Below, one piece after another: positions 1 through 10,505 of a stretch of DNA of 18,240 nucleotides; position 1 is the stretch's first letter, and the number at the start of each line of letters is the position of its first letter. The notes beneath the pieces were generated by a model, which worked only from the letters and a program-made list of their open reading frames with translations, had not been told where the DNA came from and ran no database searches. Made by a program: the position numbers and the translations under genes. The stretch spans positions 1 through 18,240 of the forward strand of contig JBIOTN010000003.1 in NCBI GenBank assembly GCA_044866005.1, read 5' to 3'. This DNA comes from Candidatus Rokuibacteriota bacterium (lineage in GTDB: Bacteria > Methylomirabilota > Methylomirabilia > Rokubacteriales > DASRDR01).

Positions 1-405
1 GAGGACCCGGTCGGCGGCCGCGACGTCTTCCAGGAGGAACGCGGTGAGTCCGCGCACGCCGTCCATCTCGGGCAGGAGGTCTTCCGGGCGCGCGCCGCAG
101 ATCTGAAGCGAGGAGCTGCACACGTAGAGCCGCACGTCGCCGATCTCCTTCACCTCCCGGAAGAGGGCGGCCAGGTCGAGGAGGCCCTGACCCTCCAGCC
201 GGGCGCGCACGCCGGCCGCGTCCCCGCGGAAGGCCTCGGACAGGTTGACCTCGGCCGCGCCCGATTTCGTGACCTTCAGCACGGCCTCGTCCCGGAAGAA
301 GACGCGCACGGCGATGCCGGAGCCGGCGGCCGCCATCAGGAGCGTGGCGACCTGGACGAGGTTGTTGAAGGTCCCGCCTGATGCGATGACGGCGAGCGAC
401 TTCAC
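1..405 (-). CDS. DsrE/DsrE2-like sulfur-transfer family protein, truncated at the left window edge
   Basis: Not in the ORF track; translated by hand from GTG at 405: MKSLAVIASGGTFNNLVQVATLLMAAAGSGIAVRVFFRDEAVLKVTK...LFREVKEIGDVRLYVCSSSLQICGARPEDLLPEMDGVRGLTAFLLEDVAAADRVL. The frame is open for 135 codons to base 1. It shows the DsrE-fold pattern (V-x-V-F-F, then LYVC with Cys96) and starts 7 nt after the TusA-like stop. Confidence 0.8.
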   Translation of the reverse strand, partial: MKSLAVIASGGTFNNLVQVATLLMAAAGSGIAVRVFFRDEAVLKVTKSGAAEVNLSEAFRGDAAGVRARLEGQGLLDLAALFREVKEIGDVRLYVCSSSLQICGARPEDLLPEMDGVRGLTAFLLEDVAAADRVL

Positions 406-412
406 GCCGCCC

Positions 413-706
413 TCAGCGGCTCTCGGCGTCGGCGGGCTTCCGCTCGATGTAGGAGACGATCAGCGGGCCCCACCGCTCGTCCACCTCCGCGGTGTGACCC
501 AGGTAGGTGTGCCCGGTGTTCCGGCACCACGCCGGGTAGTCGTGCTCGGCGGCCGGGTCGGTCGAGAGCACCTTCACGACGCCCGCCGGGGGCACCCGCA
601 ACAGGACGCGCATCAGCCGCAGAATGCCCTGCGCGCAGAGCATTCCGCGGTTGTCCACGACGTCCGCGAGCGCGGCGTCCGCGACGGGCGGCGTGCGGGA
701 GGTCAC
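413..706 (-). CDS. TusA/SirA-family sulfur carrier with a variant active-site motif
   Basis: 97 aa with VVDNRGMLCAQGILRL (canonical DxxGLxCPxP), VKVLSTDPAAEHDYPAWCRNTGH and a C-terminal YIER strand. The GTG start overlaps the upstream TGA (GTGA). Confidence 0.85.
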   Translation of the reverse strand: MTSRTPPVADAALADVVDNRGMLCAQGILRLMRVLLRVPPAGVVKVLSTDPAAEHDYPAWCRNTGHTYLGHTAEVDERWGPLIVSYIERKPADAESR

Positions 707-1086
707 CAGTTCCAGACGCTGTCGAAGCGGTCGACGAACTTGCCGAGCTCGCGCCGGCTCATGAGCTTCACGCCCTTGACCAGCTCGCCCTCGTCGATCC
801 CGCGCTCCGCGACGTCCTCGCGCAAGGCGTAAACCGGCACGTTCGACGCCTGGACCGACTGCAGGTCGGTCTCGATGAGAAACCCCGGCTGGACGGTTCC
901 CCCGGCGATCTTGATCCCGGTGCCGTCCTGCCCGCGGACGGCGTAGTTCACCGCGTCCTCGCTCAGCAGGAGCGTCATCTCGTTCCCGGTGACCGGAGCG
1001 AACGCCGAGGCGAACAGGCCGATGTCCGAGTCCTCCAGGTTTCCGTACTCGGTGTGGGAAAGGACGGACAGGATCTTCTTCGGCAT
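703..1086 (-). CDS. DsrF/TusC-like (DsrE-fold) protein, no cysteine
   Basis: 127 aa with LLLSEDAVNYAVRGQ and VYALREDVAERGI, typical of DsrF/TusC. A strong SD (AAGGAGG) lies directly after the stop of the extended upstream gene. Confidence 0.8.
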   Translation of the reverse strand: MPKKILSVLSHTEYGNLEDSDIGLFASAFAPVTGNEMTLLLSEDAVNYAVRGQDGTGIKIAGGTVQPGFLIETDLQSVQASNVPVYALREDVAERGIDEGELVKGVKLMSRRELGKFVDRFDSVWNW

Positions 1087-1101
1087 CGCGCTCGCCTCCT
1101 T

Positions 1102-1533
1102 TCAGTGACCCGAGATGAGCAGGGTCTTGTCGGCCTGATCCGTGAACTTGTAGATGTCGGCCAGCGTGCCGTGCACGACGGGATCGAGGTGGTAGCCCTG
1201 TGGAACGCCCCGTTCCACGCAGCAGAGCCCTCAGACGTACCAGTTGAGGTGGGGCTCCCCCTTGCCCTTCTCGAGCAGGCGCTCGACGAACTCCGCCGTC
1301 GTGCTGTGGGCCTTTCCGGCGTCCGTGTGATGCTCGGGCTTGTCCTTCCAGATCGGGTCGTCGTGCTGCTTCTGCGCCTTCGCCGTGAGCAGGACACCGT
1401 CCTCGTAGCCCAGGACGTTCACGTTGTAGCCCTTCTCCAGGGCCGCATCCACCAGCCGGAAGACGCTGACCGGCGTCTCGTTCCCGTAGGGGCCGGCCGT
1501 CAGCGTGATGTGCAACGTCTTGCGGTTCGCCAT
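1102..1533 (-). CDS. DsrE/TusD-like selenoprotein (143 aa; UGA at codon 101 read as Sec; motif U-G-L-C-C-V-E-R-G)
   Basis: The N-terminus has TusD/DsrE motifs (TAGPYG, AALEKG, GYEDGV). After the UGA at 1233-1231 the frame stays open for 42 more sense codons (GLCCVERGVPQGYHLDPVVHGTLADIYKFTDQADKTLLISGH) to a TGA at 1104-1102 that abuts the next gene's SD. The UGA falls at the DsrE catalytic Cys position (C-x-x-C/x...RG), and a SECIS-like hairpin follows. Confidence 0.9.
1195..1228 (-). promoter_or_regulatory. Bacterial SECIS-like stem-loop
   Basis: Minus-strand mRNA reads UGA GG GCUCU GCUGC GUGGAACG GGG CGUUCCAC AGGGC. A perfect 8-bp upper stem begins 12 nt after the UGA, with a G-only apical loop about 20 nt from the UGA and a 5-bp lower stem containing one G-U pair. 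Confidence 0.8.
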
Positions 1534-1561
1534 GACTCTCCCTCTGCGGCAGGCCGCCGCT

Positions 1562-1891
1562 TCAGTGCCAGATCGCCTTGTCCGATCGCTCCATCAAGAG
1601 GTCGACCAGCTCGTTCACGTTGCTCTTGCGGACGTCCGACGACAGCCGCTCGCCCGTCACGCCGCGCTGCCGCAGCGACACGTCGTCGGCGAGCACGTGG
1701 AGGTCGTGGCCCTTGGCCTCGGCCAGGAGCGCCTCGCCGCGCTGGAACTTCCGGCGCGCGGCGAAGACCGCCTCCTGCAAGAGATAGATGGTGACGTCGT
1801 GGCGCTCGGCGCGGAGCTGCCTGCCCAGCTCGAAGGCATAGTCTCCCCCCTCGAGCGGCCCCTTCGTCTCGATCAGCAGATATCGGGACAT
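1562..1891 (-). CDS. DsrH/TusB-like (DsrE-fold) protein, no cysteine
   Basis: MSRYLLIETKGP...VTIYLLQEAVFAAR...HVLADDVSLRQRGV...ELVDLLMERSDKAIWH. The LLQ-D/E-A/G-V and D-x-x-x-RG pattern is DsrH/TusB-like. ATG 1891 is preferred over 1906 because GGAGGTG precedes it. Confidence 0.8.
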   Translation of the reverse strand: MSRYLLIETKGPLEGGDYAFELGRQLRAERHDVTIYLLQEAVFAARRKFQRGEALLAEAKGHDLHVLADDVSLRQRGVTGERLSSDVRKSNVNELVDLLMERSDKAIWH

Positions 1892-1915
1892 CGTGGTCAC
1901 CTCCATTCCCGATGA

Positions 1916-1944
1916 ACAATAGTGGAATTGCCCGGGCCTGTCAA
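1916..1944 (-). promoter_or_regulatory. sigma70 promoter of the Dsr/Tus-like operon
   Basis: Minus strand TTGACA (1944-1939), 17-nt spacer, TATTGT (1921-1916). Confidence 0.75.
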
Positions 1945-1966: not shown

Positions 1967-2695
1967 TCAGTTGACGCGGACGATCACGTCCGCGGGCAGG
2001 CGCGCCAGGAGGTACGCCAGGGCCCCCTCGAGGTACTCCGGCTCCTTGGACTCGAGCGTCACCCGGACCTTGTACTCGGGGTTCGAGAACTCGGGATAGG
2101 AACCGCAGAGGAGGGCCGGGAACTCCCGGAGCATCGCGTTCAGGTGCTCGGCCAGCACTCCCTCGCCGACAAGCACGTAGACGCTCCGGAGCAGGAACGG
2201 CCGCTCGCGGAAGCGCTCCTTGATCGCATCGAACTTCCGCCGGAATATCTCGGGCACGCCCGGAAAGACGAACACGTTCTTGATCGACAGCACGGGCACG
2301 ATGAGCGCGTCGGCCGCCAGGAGCTCCGCGCCTTCCGGGATCTCCGCCATCTTCAGCCGGGCGTCGTTGATCCGCTCCTGGTAGACCTCTTCGAGCCGGG
2401 CCACCAGCGTGCCGTGCCGGACCACGCCGACGCCGAGCCCCTGCGCCACACCCGCCACGGTCACGTCGTCGTGGGTCGGCCCCACGCCACCCGAGGTGAA
2501 GACCCAGTCGTAGGCGTGGTGGAACTCCCGAACCTCGCGCGCGATGAGCTCCACCTCGTCGGGAATGACCGAGACCTTGCGGACCTCCACTCCCAGCTCG
2601 CGAAACTGGCGGCAGAGGTACGCGGCGTTCAGGTCCACGACCTTGCCGGAGAGGATCTCGTTCCCGATGAGGATGATGCCGGCCGTCTTGGCCAT
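1967..2695 (-). CDS. CinA-like/molybdopterin-binding domain protein (no C-terminal PncC domain)
   Basis: The real start is internal to the 547-aa ORF: MAKTAGIILIGNEILSGKVVDLN, with TSGGVGPTHDDVT and FPGVP motifs; 242 aa. Confidence 0.88.
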   Translation of the reverse strand: MAKTAGIILIGNEILSGKVVDLNAAYLCRQFRELGVEVRKVSVIPDEVELIAREVREFHHAYDWVFTSGGVGPTHDDVTVAGVAQGLGVGVVRHGTLVARLEEVYQERINDARLKMAEIPEGAELLAADALIVPVLSIKNVFVFPGVPEIFRRKFDAIKERFRERPFLLRSVYVLVGEGVLAEHLNAMLREFPALLCGSYPEFSNPEYKVRVTLESKEPEYLEGALAYLLARLPADVIVRVN

Positions 2696-2796: not shown

Positions 2797-2825
2797 TTGT
2801 CACCCTGGGAGGCGTGCGGTACAAT
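2797..2825 (+). promoter_or_regulatory. sigma70 promoter for the enoyl-ACP reductase gene
   Basis: TTGTCA (2797-2802), 17 nt, TACAAT (2820-2825). A divergent TACAAT lies on the minus strand at 2721-2716 upstream of the CinA-like gene. Confidence 0.65.
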
Positions 2826-6429: not shown

Positions 6430-7905
6430 ATGGATGGAACGGGATCCGAGGCGCGCGCCCCGGGCGCGACCTCCCCGTCTCCCGCAGGGCGGCGCGCGGG
6501 CTCCGCGCGCGTGGGGTCCCCGACCCGCCAGTTCGCCCTCCTGAGCCTCTTGACCCTCGGCGGCAGCACGCTCCTCTTCGGCTTCGCGCTCGCATACTAC
6601 GTCGAGCGCGGGATCCTGGATCACGAGTGGGCCACCACGTCGGCCCTCTTGCGGACCGCGGCGCGCTTCTACCTGCGCCCGTCGGACTTCGCCCGGCGCG
6701 GAGAGAGCTCGAGCCCGGCGAGCGACGAGGCGGGCGATCGCTTCGAGGAGTTCAGCCGTCAGGTGCGGATGCTGCCGGAGATCCTGCGGCTCGTCGCGTA
6801 CGACAACCGTGGCGGCGTCGTCTGGACGGATGGCGACCCCGGCAGGCTTCATCCCGCGCACGCCTCGCTCCGGCAGGCGCTCGGCGGGGAGACGAGCATC
6901 CAGCTCGAGCCGCGCACCCGCGACCGCGCGGAGCGCGTCGAGATCTACGTGCCGATCACCTACCCCGGCGAGGGCCGCATCGCCGGCATCATCGAGGCCT
7001 ACGTGGACCCGACCCGCGTGCTGGCGAGTGTCCGGCGCGCGCGGCTCATCTTGTGGAGCCTCGCCGCCCTCTCGGGCACGGTCCTCTACGCCGTCCTGTA
7101 CGGCATCGTCTGGCGGGCCTCGCGCCAGCTGCGGGCGCAGCACGCCGCGCTCCGGGAGCGCGCCGCGGAGCTGGCCCGCGCGAACGCGGAGCTCCGCGCC
7201 GTCCACCGCCAGCTCGTGACGGCCGAGCGGTTCGCGGCCTTCGGCGAGATCACCGCGGCCGTAGCGCACGGGCTGGGTAACCCGCTCGCCGTCATCCGGT
7301 CGACCGCGCAGGTCGCGCTGCTGGACGCGCCGGCCGGCCCCCTCCGCGACGGACTCTGCCAGGTGATCGCCGAGACCGACCGCCTGTCGGAGCGCATGCG
7401 AGCGCTGCTCGACTTCGGCCGGCCGGTGGAGCAGCGGCGCGTGCCGACGGCGCTCGAGGCCGCCGTCCGCCCCGCGCTCGAGTCGATCCGCGCGCGCGCC
7501 GCCGCGCAGGACGTCCGCCTGGACGTCGCGGTGGGCGGCGAGTTCCCGAAAGTCCGCCTCGACCCCGCCCGGTTCGAAGAGGCGCTCCTCTGTCTCCTCG
7601 GGAACGCCCTCGACGCCATGCCGCGCGGGGGCTCGCTGCGGGTCGTGGCCTCCGCGGCGGCCGACGGCGACGCGACGGCCGGCCGGGCCCTCACCCTCGT
7701 CGTCGAAGACACCGGACCCGGCATTCCCGCGGCCGTCCTGGCGCGGGTCTTCGAGCCCTTCTTCACCACCAAGCGCGGCGGGACCGGGCTCGGGCTCGCG
7801 GTCGCCCGAAAGCTCCTGGAGAGCGGAGGCGGCCGGCTCGAGCTCCGGACCGAGCCGGGACGCGGCACGCAGGCCATCATGACGCTGCCGGTCGACGAGG
7901 CCTGA
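6430..7905 (+). CDS. Membrane sensor histidine kinase (NtrB-like)
   Basis: Two TM segments flank an extracytoplasmic domain, followed by a coiled coil, H-box AAVAHGLGNPL, N-box LGNALDAM, EDTGPGI, FEPFFTTK and GTGLGL. The start could alternatively be GTG 6511. Confidence 0.93.
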   Translation: MDGTGSEARAPGATSPSPAGRRAGSARVGSPTRQFALLSLLTLGGSTLLFGFALAYYVERGILDHEWATTSALLRTAARFYLRPSDFARRGESSSPASDEAGDRFEEFSRQVRMLPEILRLVAYDNRGGVVWTDGDPGRLHPAHASLRQALGGETSIQLEPRTRDRAERVEIYVPITYPGEGRIAGIIEAYVDPTRVLASVRRARLILWSLAALSGTVLYAVLYGIVWRASRQLRAQHAALRERAAELARANAELRAVHRQLVTAERFAAFGEITAAVAHGLGNPLAVIRSTAQVALLDAPAGPLRDGLCQVIAETDRLSERMRALLDFGRPVEQRRVPTALEAAVRPALESIRARAAAQDVRLDVAVGGEFPKVRLDPARFEEALLCLLGNALDAMPRGGSLRVVASAAADGDATAGRALTLVVEDTGPGIPAAVLARVFEPFFTTKRGGTGLGLAVARKLLESGGGRLELRTEPGRGTQAIMTLPVDEA

Positions 7906-7906
7906 G

Positions 7907-9304
7907 GTGCCACCCACGGTCCTGATCGTCGAGGACGAGGCGCCGCTGGCCTCGGCCCTCCAGACCTTCCTCCAGCGCCAGGGATTGCCCGTCCACGCCT
8001 TCGCCTCGGCAGAGGCCGCGCTGCCGGCCCTCGCCGAGGTGGCGCCGGACCTCGCCCTCGTCGACGTCCATCTGCCGGGCATGGACGGGCTCGCCATGCT
8101 GGACGCCATCCGCCGCGAGCGTCCGGAGACCCAGGTCATCCTGATGACGGCCTTCTCCACCGTCTCGAGCGCGGTGGCGGCGATGAAGGCCGGTGCCGTG
8201 GACTACCTGACGAAGCCCCTCGACCTCGACGAGCTCTCGGTCGTGATCCAGCGCGTCTGGGAAGGCCACCGGGTCCGCGGGGAGCTCGCCTACCTGCGCG
8301 AGCGGGCCGGGCATTCCCTGCCGGTGGACAGCCTCCTCGGAAACGCTCCGGCCATGGTGGCGGTCCGGCAGCGCATCCTCCAGGTGGCGCGCGCGGACCG
8401 CGTGGGCGAGGCCGGACCCACCGTCCTGGTACAGGGGGAGACCGGCACGGGCAAAGAGCTGGCCGCGCGCGCGATCCACGCGGCCGGTCCCCGGGCCGGC
8501 GGGCCCTTCGTCGAGATCAACTGCGCCGCGATCCCCGCGGCCCTCCTCGAGGGCGAGCTGATGGGCTTCGAGAAGGGGGCGTACACGGACGCCCGGACCA
8601 GCAAGCCGGGGCTCTTCGAGGCGGCCGACGCGGGAACGCTCTTCCTCGACGAGATCTGCCTGCTCGATCTCGCGCTCCAGGCGAAGCTCCTGCGCGTGAT
8701 CGAGGACCGTTCCGTGCGCCGGCTCGGCGCCGTGACCCCGCGGCGGGTGGACATCCGGATCGTCGCGGCGACGAATCGCGATCTCGAGACCGCCGCGCGC
8801 GAGGGGGCGTTCCGGCAGGACCTCCTCTATCGTCTTCGCGTCCTGACGGTCGACCTCCCGCCCCTGCGCACCCGGGGCGAGGACGTCGTCTTGCTGGCCG
8901 AGCACTTCCTCCGGCAGGTCCGCGAGCGGTACGGGCTCGGCGAGATCCGCTTCTCCTCCGCTGCCCTTCGTGAGCTTCAGGCCTACTCCTGGCCGGGAAA
9001 CGTGCGCGAGCTCACCAACGTGGTCGAGCGGGCCGCGCTCCTCAACCCGGGACCGACGCTCGGCCCCGAGCACCTCGCGCTCGTGGACAGCCCCTCCATG
9101 CCGGTGGCGGTGGGCCCGGACGGGGAGGTCCGGGTGGACTTCGCGCACGGGCCCATCAACCTGGAGGTGGTCGAGCGATCGCTGATCCACCGGGCGCTGG
9201 CCCATACCGGCTGGAATCGCGCGCGGGCCGCCGAGCTGCTCGGCCTGACGAAGGAGACCTTGCGCTACCGGATGGAGAAATACCGCCTCAGCCCCGACTC
9301 ATGA
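7907..9304 (+). CDS. sigma54-dependent response regulator (REC + AAA+ + Fis HTH)
   Basis: Receiver motifs VEDE / DVHLPGMDG / TKP, Walker A GETGTGKE, loop GAYTDA, Walker B LFLDEI, FRQDLLYRL, WPGNVREL, and C-terminal NRARAAELLG HTH. Confidence 0.96.
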   Translation: MPPTVLIVEDEAPLASALQTFLQRQGLPVHAFASAEAALPALAEVAPDLALVDVHLPGMDGLAMLDAIRRERPETQVILMTAFSTVSSAVAAMKAGAVDYLTKPLDLDELSVVIQRVWEGHRVRGELAYLRERAGHSLPVDSLLGNAPAMVAVRQRILQVARADRVGEAGPTVLVQGETGTGKELAARAIHAAGPRAGGPFVEINCAAIPAALLEGELMGFEKGAYTDARTSKPGLFEAADAGTLFLDEICLLDLALQAKLLRVIEDRSVRRLGAVTPRRVDIRIVAATNRDLETAAREGAFRQDLLYRLRVLTVDLPPLRTRGEDVVLLAEHFLRQVRERYGLGEIRFSSAALRELQAYSWPGNVRELTNVVERAALLNPGPTLGPEHLALVDSPSMPVAVGPDGEVRVDFAHGPINLEVVERSLIHRALAHTGWNRARAAELLGLTKETLRYRMEKYRLSPDS

Positions 9305-9436
9305 GCCGGCCGGGAAATCCCCGCGCGCCACGGGCAGATGCCCACAAATGCGCCAGGCCAGGCGCGTCGACCGGCCGTCGTCTCGAAAGCACGCGTTTCG
9401 ACAGCGTTTACGCTCCCCGAGCCGAGGAGGAGGCTT

Positions 9437-9451
9437 TGGCACGCCCCTTGC
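9437..9451 (+). promoter_or_regulatory. sigma54 (-24/-12) promoter
   Basis: TGGCAC-GCCCC-TTGC, an exact match to TGGCAC-N5-TTGC, 73 nt upstream of ATG 9525. Confidence 0.88.
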
Positions 9452-9524
9452 CCGACAGTTCCGGGCAGGCGGCGACTCCCCGGGTGAGGAGCGCCGTGGT
9501 CCCAGACCCGAAGAAGGAGGGGGC

Positions 9525-10505
9525 ATGAGCGGGCGGAGCGGTCGGTGGCCCCGATTGCTACTGGCCCTCGCCTGCCTCCTCTACCTTCTTTCGCCCGGTC
9601 CGCAACCCCAGCGGCTGACCGGCGGTGATCCCACGACCGCCATCGCCGACGACAAGGGAGGCGGCGACGGGAAAGACGGGAAAGGCGGGGGCGGCGGCTC
9701 GGGCTCCGGGGGGTCAGGTTCTGGCGGCTCCGGCGGTTCGGGCTCGGGCGGTTCGGGGTCCGGCGGTTCGGGGTCCGGCGGCGCCGGCGGCTCGGGTGGC
9801 TCGGGCTCCGGCTCCGGGAGCGGGGGGGACGGCAAGGGCGGGGGCGGCGAGGGGAAGGGTGGGGGCGGCGAAGGGAAAGGGAGCGGCAACGGCAAAGGGG
9901 GCGACGGTAAAGGCGGGGCAGGCGAAGGCAAGGGCGGCGGTGGTGAGGGCAAGGGCGGCGGCTCCGCTGGGAAGGGCGGCGGTACCGACGACTTGTCCGG
10001 GCGCGAGCCGGCCACTGGCCGCGGCACCGGACGCGCCGGCTCGGAGGGCCGCGGCGGCGGAGTGACCCGCGGGGCCGATCCGGGCGGTGTCGGCGCCGCC
10101 GGCGCGCCGGCCGTCGGAGCGGCCGCCGGCCGAGGAGGCCAGCGCGAGGCGCGGGACGCCGCGCGCGCCGCCGCCGAGGCTGCCCGCGACGCGGCCCGGG
10201 CGGCGGCGGACGCGGCTCGAACGGCCGCGCGCCAGGGACAGGGCGCCCAGCCAGGGCGTGCCCAGGCCATCGCCGACGCCGCGCGGGATGCCGCGCAGAC
10301 CGCCGCCGGCGCGGCGCGCGAGGCCGAGCGCGCGGCCGTCGAGGCCGCGCGCGCCGCCGAGATCGCAGGCGGCGGCGACGGGAGCGACGCCCAGCGGAGC
10401 GCGAACCTCGCGGCCGAGCTGGCGCTCGACGCCGCGGAACGTGCACGGGAAGCCGCCGACGAGGCGGCCGACCGTCCGGAGCGCGAGGCCCGCGGCCGCC
10501 CCTAG
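9525..10505 (+). CDS. Exported low-complexity Gly/Ser/Lys-rich and Ala-rich hypothetical protein (326 aa)
   Basis: SD AAGGAGG precedes ATG 9525. An N-terminal basic plus hydrophobic segment (RWPRLLLALACLLYLLS) is followed by a possible AIA|DD cleavage site, GSG repeats, GKG repeats and an Ala/Arg/Glu helical C-terminus. Confidence 0.8.
   Translation: MSGRSGRWPRLLLALACLLYLLSPGPQPQRLTGGDPTTAIADDKGGGDGKDGKGGGGGSGSGGSGSGGSGGSGSGGSGSGGSGSGGAGGSGGSGSGSGSGGDGKGGGGEGKGGGGEGKGSGNGKGGDGKGGAGEGKGGGGEGKGGGSAGKGGGTDDLSGREPATGRGTGRAGSEGRGGGVTRGADPGGVGAAGAPAVGAAAGRGGQREARDAARAAAEAARDAARAAADAARTAARQGQGAQPGRAQAIADAARDAAQTAAGAAREAERAAVEAARAAEIAGGGDGSDAQRSANLAAELALDAAERAREAADEAADRPEREARGRP
9684..9983 (+). repeat. 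Coding low-complexity tandem repeats: (GGSGS)n then eight x-G-K-G units
   Basis: The translation [33 protein letters not shown]... is followed by GDGKGGGGEGKGGGGEGKG...; codons differ between units. Confidence 0.85.

Follow-up and report, generated by a model that had tools for sequence, protein, structure and literature searches.

A selenocysteine-encoding DsrEFH-like cassette with TusA and DsrE2B-like genes in Rokubacteria and its probable role in sulfur assimilation

What might a set of DsrE-fold and TusA-family proteins do when one of them is predicted to carry selenocysteine (Sec) at its reactive position? The question is raised by a five-gene cassette at the left end of contig JBIOTN010000003.1 (C3) from a Candidatus Rokuibacteriota bacterium. 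The window analysed here is this entire contig, hence its 18,240 nucleotides (nt) are all the sequence available there; the host assembly (4.67 Mb, 72.6% GC) is rated 94% complete, and the related genomes mostly carry Rokubacteria or Methylomirabilota titles. Because a control sequence appears to be common to the cassette and to sulfate-assimilation genes, we propose a role in cysteine supply. An assimilatory function is probable, and we see about an even chance that the cassette is a cysteine-limitation module, which would free sulfide from sulfur held on a carrier protein so that cysteine can be made.

The five genes lie on the minus strand between position 1891 and the contig end, with successive gaps of 28, 15, -4 and 7 nt, and are given the working names H, E, F, T (TusA) and D (DsrE2B-like) in this order. 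Pfam matches assign the DsrE/DsrH fold to the first, second, third and fifth genes and TusA to the fourth, in agreement with the initial annotation, which was made from the sequence alone. That annotation also placed a sigma70 promoter ahead of the operon, and TTGACA-17 nt-TATTGT is indeed present at 1916..1944 on the minus strand (10/12 matches to consensus; two sites in 3 kb, compared with 0.1 in shuffles). Its count of at least five genes holds as to the five tightly spaced genes and can now be closed at exactly five, since D is the final gene of the cassette and, judged from relatives, ends two codons beyond the window edge. The operon is real and conserved. A search of genome contigs with E gave 26 loci, comprising 18 close (79-95%), seven distant (31-37%, six of them titled cyanobacteria) and one weak; all five genes occur together in 15 of the 18 close loci, and the other three are a contig-end cut, an H-E-F set and an H-E pair. 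Co-occurrence in other genomes, on which the earlier interpretation depended, is thus borne out.

The control sequence is a 16-bp imperfect palindrome over the -10 box (1905..1920), a candidate repressor operator that lies 8-13 nt before the start of H in the window and in nine of 16 relatives. Its consensus was read by eye, partly from one sulfite-reductase promoter, and on its right side it runs up to the ribosome-binding site. With a symmetrised matrix built from the nine relatives' sites, a sulfite-reductase-type gene ranks first and the cassette second among the 3,238 upstream regions of the host genome; in a motif scan of the whole genome including coding DNA, coding hits dominated. The top-ranked gene scores best with NirA-type models, under their cut-off, and is called sulfite reductase (sir) because its orthologues are fused to ATP sulfurylase. 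A site scoring at least 12.9 is found upstream of 18 of the 19 sulfite-reductase-type loci (17 genomes), with second-best scores of at most 11.4, and 15 of these 18 sites come directly after TTGAC, far from any ribosome-binding site. When only 250 nt ahead of sir were taken, the site was present in 2/12 stand-alone loci; the extension to 1,500 nt, which was chosen afterwards, reached the operon promoters. The reverse matrix, made from the 18 sulfite-reductase sites, gives 1905-1920 the highest score of any site in the window (17.4, next 7.4). The window's site is in no training set, while the reverse test on the nine training relatives is partly circular. In two relatives (L010, L011), the cassette forms the tail of a sulfite-reductase/sirohaem operon that bears the site. 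The same operator is also seen at an ATP-grasp gene of unknown role (G000:C121:2-1024), which lies inside the sulfite-reductase operon in L010 (6625-7599).

A putative regulator is encoded by a Cys-free Rrf2 gene (G000:C136:6442-6885), which leads a run with cysK (G000:C136:6442-8748, L157). The further genes of this run are presumably ThiS-like and Mec-like, as labelled from their sequences, and the run as a whole resembles a carrier-protein route to cysteine. Orthologues of the Rrf2 gene have cysK in the same locus in 28/28 cases, the palindrome ends at the Rrf2 ATG in 5/5 genomes of this family, and a site scoring at least 10 is present between cymR and cysK in four further loci. CymR represses when cysteine is sufficient. 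We regard the palindrome as a candidate operator common to the cassette, the sulfite-reductase operons and some of the cymR-like/cysK operons, a connection that the initial annotation missed.

The predicted catalytic subunit is E (1102..1533, minus strand; 143 amino acids), a DsrE-fold protein with the motif U101-G-L-C104-C105. Its codon 101 is an in-frame TGA (1231..1233), which is TGA in 18/18 close loci and a Cys codon (TGC/TGT) in 7/7 distant loci. In alignment, U101 and C104 coincide with the CxxC of YchN from E. coli. Past the TGA, in-frame conservation extends over the remaining 42 codons, which complete the fold. The model of the read-through protein (predicted local distance difference test score of 88) matches the structures of YchN, DsrE and TusD. 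Beginning 13 nt past the TGA, a hairpin resembling a selenocysteine insertion sequence (1200..1218) is predicted to form an 8-bp stem with a GGG loop, and its 19 nt are identical in 18/18 aligned rows. The hairpin fixes the rare codons GAA, GTT and CCA, which make up 8%, 1.2% and 1.6% of the codons for their residues genome-wide and are the sole A/T-ending codons among 20 nucleotide-invariant codons (15 genes compared). Since its folding energy by itself is not significant (z of -0.04 to -1.08), the case for the hairpin rests on conservation. The host genome encodes the Sec machinery, with tRNA-Sec, selA, selB and a selD that itself contains TGA. Residue 101 is therefore predicted to be Sec, as the initial annotation proposed in naming U101, C104 and C105 as the reactive site.

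It is extremely unlikely that the TGA is a genuine stop and E a truncated protein of 100 residues. The database proteins closest to E all end near residue 100 and are called TusD where named. In addition, selA is above cut-off in 19 of 22 cassette genomes, the other three having a contig-end fragment in one case and no match in two (one of these rated 100% complete), and selB has no match in the same three. A true stop would leave unexplained the in-frame conservation of the 42 codons, the Cys at the aligned position, the hairpin that is invariant at synonymous sites and the presence of selA in most cassette genomes. Public annotations, which truncate E at ∼100 amino acids and name it TusD, can mislead pathway inference in Rokubacteria. 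A separate and unrelated DsrE selenoprotein lineage of the same phylum, with an in-frame TGA followed by GSC, occurs at L057:1300-1656, L059:1498-1854, L060:1489-1860 and L061:1489-1842. It is first in an E-F-H-order set in L057, L060 and L061; L057 and L060 also have an ArsR-like gene, and L057 has a TusA-like gene in addition.

The partners of E are two DsrE-fold accessory subunits, H (1562..1891, minus strand; 109 amino acids, Pfam DsrH 27.8 bits) and F (703..1086, minus strand; 127 amino acids). H has no Cys in 18/18 rows and F a lone unconserved Cys in 1/17, upholding the description of both as Cys-free. The names DsrH and DsrF given to them earlier stand as to the DsrE-like fold and are loose as specific labels. 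They should be treated as provisional, because H and F are clearly related to one another (hhalign 93.8%), both have DsrH as best sequence match, and the fold of F, taken from the model of a Cys-family orthologue, prefers DsrF (2hy5_B) only narrowly. In E, the Sec falls at the position equivalent to Cys78 of DsrE/TusD, in a register set by the YchN alignment and by the strand-helix junction of the model, which would place a selenol at the DsrE active site as suggested before; His57, His76 and Glu44 are conserved as well. H-E-F is not a canonical TusBCD/DsrEFH. The NCBIfam cut-offs for TusD, TusC and TusB are missed by E (17.5 vs 89.25), F (15.1 vs 94.15) and H (25.9 vs 49.2), and DsrC/TusE was not found in the host genome or in 30 other cassette genomes, most of them incomplete metagenome-assembled genomes. 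These results agree with the earlier remark that no dsrC/tusE partner is visible and depart from the canonical arrangement that would have counted against the earlier interpretation. From the gene linkage we infer that H, E and F would form a DsrEFH-like heterocomplex.

T (413..706, minus strand; 97 amino acids) is a TusA-family carrier (Pfam TusA, E = 8.5e-12) that matches the TusA/YhhP structures. Its Cys24, within LCAQG, and a second residue, Cys62, are both conserved in 16/16 rows, and the CPxP motif is replaced by CAQG in all 16. D (1..405, minus strand; last two codons and stop removed by the contig end) has a conserved Cys97 and is DsrE2B-like. Its nearest solved relative is SSO1126 (2QS7, E = 4.3e-10, Cys aligned), described as an archaeal DsrE2B in the sections of the report available (PMC4175335), and it scores 20 bits with Pfam DrsE_2, under the cut-off of 25. 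No Dsr or Hdr gene was linked to D among the annotated neighbours; sHdr was not searched genome-wide.

Within the phylum, the Sec form was found in 18/251 genomes; two copies cut by contig ends and one deletion genome came in addition from a DNA search. This search gave 124/183 gene-order 'matches', mostly short high-GC noise, and long matches alone were used. The deletion relic (L187:3742-4664, G215) retains an intact H, the first codons of E fused to mid-T, an intact D and the operator, the deletion having taken most of E, the whole of F and the start of T. Far more widespread is a Cys form of E, with 5,835 hits among 5,869 candidate protein clusters and named members in Burkholderia, Trinickia, Alloalcanivorax, Paraburkholderia, Methylophaga, Acidobacteriota and Myxococcota. 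Of 201 cyanobacterial genomes sampled, four have it, two of these being seeds of the search. A Cys-form H-E-F trio is retained by four cyanobacterial endosymbionts of diatoms (Epithemia/Rhopalodia; L020-L023, ∼7585-8854). Across 90 Cys-form loci, H is upstream of E in 74/74 and F downstream in 75/75 where the DNA sufficed, and T and D were found in 0/90, many of the contigs being short. In a tree of 47 E rows, which raised long-branch warnings and did not include canonical TusD/DsrE rows, the 16 Sec-form proteins make up one side of a branch (99/99). By these comparisons, the window cassette is the selenium version, with added TusA and DsrE2B-like genes, of a widespread three-gene Cys-form cassette. 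Divergent Cys relatives of E (P0072, P0080, P0201 and P0204) fall in neither the Sec clade nor the main Cys clade.

The acceptor that the initial annotation expected to be encoded left of the window is not seen in relatives: in 13 loci, the gene after D comes from 12 different clusters, which leaves that side without a conserved acceptor. The ttuA gene lies ∼1-4 kb upstream of the cassette in 5/17 loci, and ttuA/ttuB were rejected as a conserved acceptor, since four of the five share one synteny block (rskA). In the host genome, mnmA and ttuA/ttuB are present on contigs other than the window, and neither dsrA above cut-off nor selU was found. The host genome also has a separate tusA adjoining a desulfurase-like gene and a separate E-F-H triplet. 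A separate E-F-H-like trio at G000:C190:32710-33714 (L063, L067) is flanked by the isc operon and a desulfurase/IscU/cysE-like run, hardly resembles the window's E (hhalign 5.6%) and may be DsrEFH type II-like. A yeeE-like gene adjoins the cassette in 1/18 loci (L004), where the first ∼320 residues of the call are real and the remainder is the antisense of gene D. Among the Cys forms, one cassette follows sir and cysH directly (L138), and another, on a Methylophaga plasmid, follows a flavodoxin-domain gene and cysI. Others are near persulfide-dioxygenase-like, FCSD or desulfurase/rhodanese genes, and the commonest neighbour is a BTAD regulator (15/90).

In the proposed mechanism, the Cys-free Rrf2 repressor encoded beside cysK would bind the palindrome and release it when cysteine is short. 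H, E and F would form a DsrEFH-like three-subunit ring with U101-x-x-C104 as its sole reactive site. T would load sulfane sulfur or a thiosulfate-derived group onto Cys24, U101 would attack the carrier-bound sulfur, and C104 (or C105) would resolve the adduct. The sulfide thus freed would pass to cysteine synthase and, with thiosulfate as the source, sulfite would also pass to sulfite reductase. A cellular thiol would then re-reduce the Se-S bond. D may serve as a second sulfur-holding station, and selenium would be a catalytic upgrade of a Cys enzyme rather than cargo. Cross-genome comparison provides the regulon link and the residue anatomy; the complex, its substrates, the reduction and the identity of the regulator we infer. 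Related precedents, from the portions of the reports available, are the assimilation of thiosulfate by YeeD/YeeE, for which the acceptors downstream are an open question (PMC11073785), the listing of YeeE in both the sulfur-starvation set and the CymR set of S. aureus (PMC13689551), and the cleavage of thiosulfate off TusA by DsrE3A (PMC4175335). As a broader and more tentative idea, which we consider possible and would not bet on, H-E-F may be a third, assimilatory DsrEFH-like type, a sulfane/thiosulfonate reductase that needs no DsrC/TusE to supply cysteine synthesis and is present in thousands of clusters from soil and aquatic bacteria, with the Rokubacteria version a selenoenzyme that has its own TusA and DsrE2B-like carriers. 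If true, this version would be the acceptor that is missing after carriers of the TusA/YeeD type.

Several results weigh against the cysteine-limitation proposal. With the unsymmetrised matrix, the cassette ranks third and sir falls to 11th. Neither the site nor an upstream sir operon is present in 5/16 relatives, and 3/70 Cys-form cassettes carry the site. It lies at most 60 nt upstream of a cymR-like gene in only 6/28 loci (0.14% of shuffles), and the Rrf2 protein, with CymR as its nearest named model, scores 108 bits against a cut-off of 195. The sir gene was found in 10 of 20 cassette genomes, these being incomplete, which fits scavenging better than channelling of the Sir product. Archaeal DsrE2B, in the passages of the report available, was unreactive towards all six sulfur compounds tried and failed to bind TusA (PMC4175335), and sulfur reduction through a CxxC pair is not shown for characterised DsrE proteins in the literature examined; these relay sulfur. 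The palindrome also fits the SqrR motif ATTC-N8-GAAT, as given in the accessible part of its description (PMC9774250), and SqrR-type derepression by sulfide would imply a detoxification role.

Such detoxification or buffering of reactive sulfur, in which the cassette captures sulfide or polysulfide, including leakage from sulfite reductase, under a persulfide-sensing repressor, is rather unlikely. The window palindrome agrees with the SqrR motif at 7/8 positions, and metallo-beta-lactamase-rhodanese fusions (persulfide-dioxygenase-like) are found near Cys-form cassettes in 8/90 loci, several of them near-identical, and upstream of the cassette in L005; an FCSD flavoprotein gene adjoins the Cys form in two loci. 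The presence of the site ahead of cymR-like/cysK and sulfite-reductase operons would, however, be unexpected in a sulfide-induced regulon. A plain persulfide relay comparable to TusA-TusBCD, in which sulfur from a cysteine desulfurase would reach a distant user (for example TtuA/TtuB, MnmA or a cofactor pathway) without being reduced, is unlikely. The fold and active-site position are those of TusD/DsrE, and potential users are encoded in the genome, with ttuA near the cassette in some loci; yet the rskA block common to four of the five ttuA loci may reflect one ancestral linkage, TusE/DsrC was not found in the 31 genomes, the cassette is patchy within its phylum, and the genome has the separate desulfurase-linked tusA and E-F-H triplet.

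A thiol-redox or metal-binding set, with UxxCC as a peroxidase-like or heavy-metal site, is quite improbable. UxxC is a redox motif, the SaoD protein of a metal-linked system has CxxCC according to the part of the preprint available (10.1101/2022.07.06.499078), one Cys-form cassette follows a heavy-metal ATPase gene, and His57, His76 and Glu44 of E are conserved; inheritance together with TusA and DsrE2B-like genes, and a candidate operator common with sulfur-assimilation genes, argue otherwise. Selenium trafficking to SelD or another selenium user, one option of the initial annotation, we consider very improbable. The available text of PMC5322559 gives a link between SelD and YedF, in which TusA is fused to DsrE and the motif is CGxC, and a LysR gene above the selenium-metabolism cut-off lies ∼4 kb from the cassette in L005. 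The option is not sustained by the neighbourhood, where no sel gene was recognised among 66 annotated neighbour proteins (of 143 clusters), by the failure to find selU in the host genome, or by the huge Cys-form family, which extends to cyanobacteria; a selenoprotein would also be a poor bootstrap for selenium supply.

Like the cassette, the known systems DsrEFH type I of A. vinosum (2HY5) and TusBCD of E. coli (2D1P) have three DsrE-fold genes, one reactive subunit, a TusA partner and the reactive residue at the Cys78-equivalent position. The cassette differs from them in having the reactive gene in the middle, scores far below the NCBIfam cut-offs, a Sec-bearing UxxC pair and a His-containing insertion, no conserved equivalent of DsrH-Cys20, no DsrC/TusE and a candidate operator common with assimilation genes. 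DsrEFH type II of the YTD cluster (Plum-Jensen et al. 2026, PMC13293266) is also a divergent DsrEFH-like trio with tusA, in which sulfur is transferred from TusA to DsrE. In the part of that account available, it uses Cys67, passes sulfur to DsrC and occurs mostly with reductive dsrAB, whereas the host genome has neither dsrC nor a dsrA over cut-off. The Metallosphaera cuprina dsrE3A-dsrE2B-tusA cluster (PMC4175335, available in part) resembles the cassette in that tusA adjoins a DsrE2B-like gene, but it is tied to sHdr and forms homotrimers, in contrast to the three different subunits of the cassette and the lack of Hdr-like genes among its annotated neighbours. YeeE/YeeD (TsuA/TsuB) also use a TusA-family carrier for sulfur assimilation, as far as the available sections of PMC11073785 go; the cassette has no transporter gene and its TusA no CPxP.

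A point missed by the initial annotation is that UxxC DsrE-like selenoproteins are already known. In the available portions of the catalogues (PMC1088965; PMC1794560; PMC13188914), such proteins, with Pfam PF02635, UxxC and one Sec, have been listed since 2005 and are still uncharacterised in 2026; the comparison is by description, and no operon context is given there. Literature searches, which left most subscription papers uncovered, returned no account of the cassette; selenoproteome supplements and a groundwater metagenome-assembled genome study (ref. 66 in PMC13188914), which were outside the search, may list the protein. With the cassette, the uncharacterised 'DsrE-like selenoprotein' family gains a concrete operon, partners and a regulatory context. 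Known uses of DsrEFH-like trios are tRNA thiolation and dissimilatory sulfur oxidation, and the cassette points to a third, sulfur assimilation. The candidate operator offers a testable function for a large unstudied family, and the occurrence of the Cys form in cultured Paraburkholderia, Burkholderia, Alloalcanivorax and Methylophaga makes that function accessible to genetics.

Elsewhere in the window, a CinA-like gene (1967-2695, minus strand) lies directly upstream of the operon promoter. A further sigma70-like promoter (2797-2825, plus strand) is found ahead of an SDR gene at 2861, and a low-complexity open frame, Gly/Ser- and Ala-rich, extends over 9348-10505 (plus strand) ahead of a TPR-like gene.

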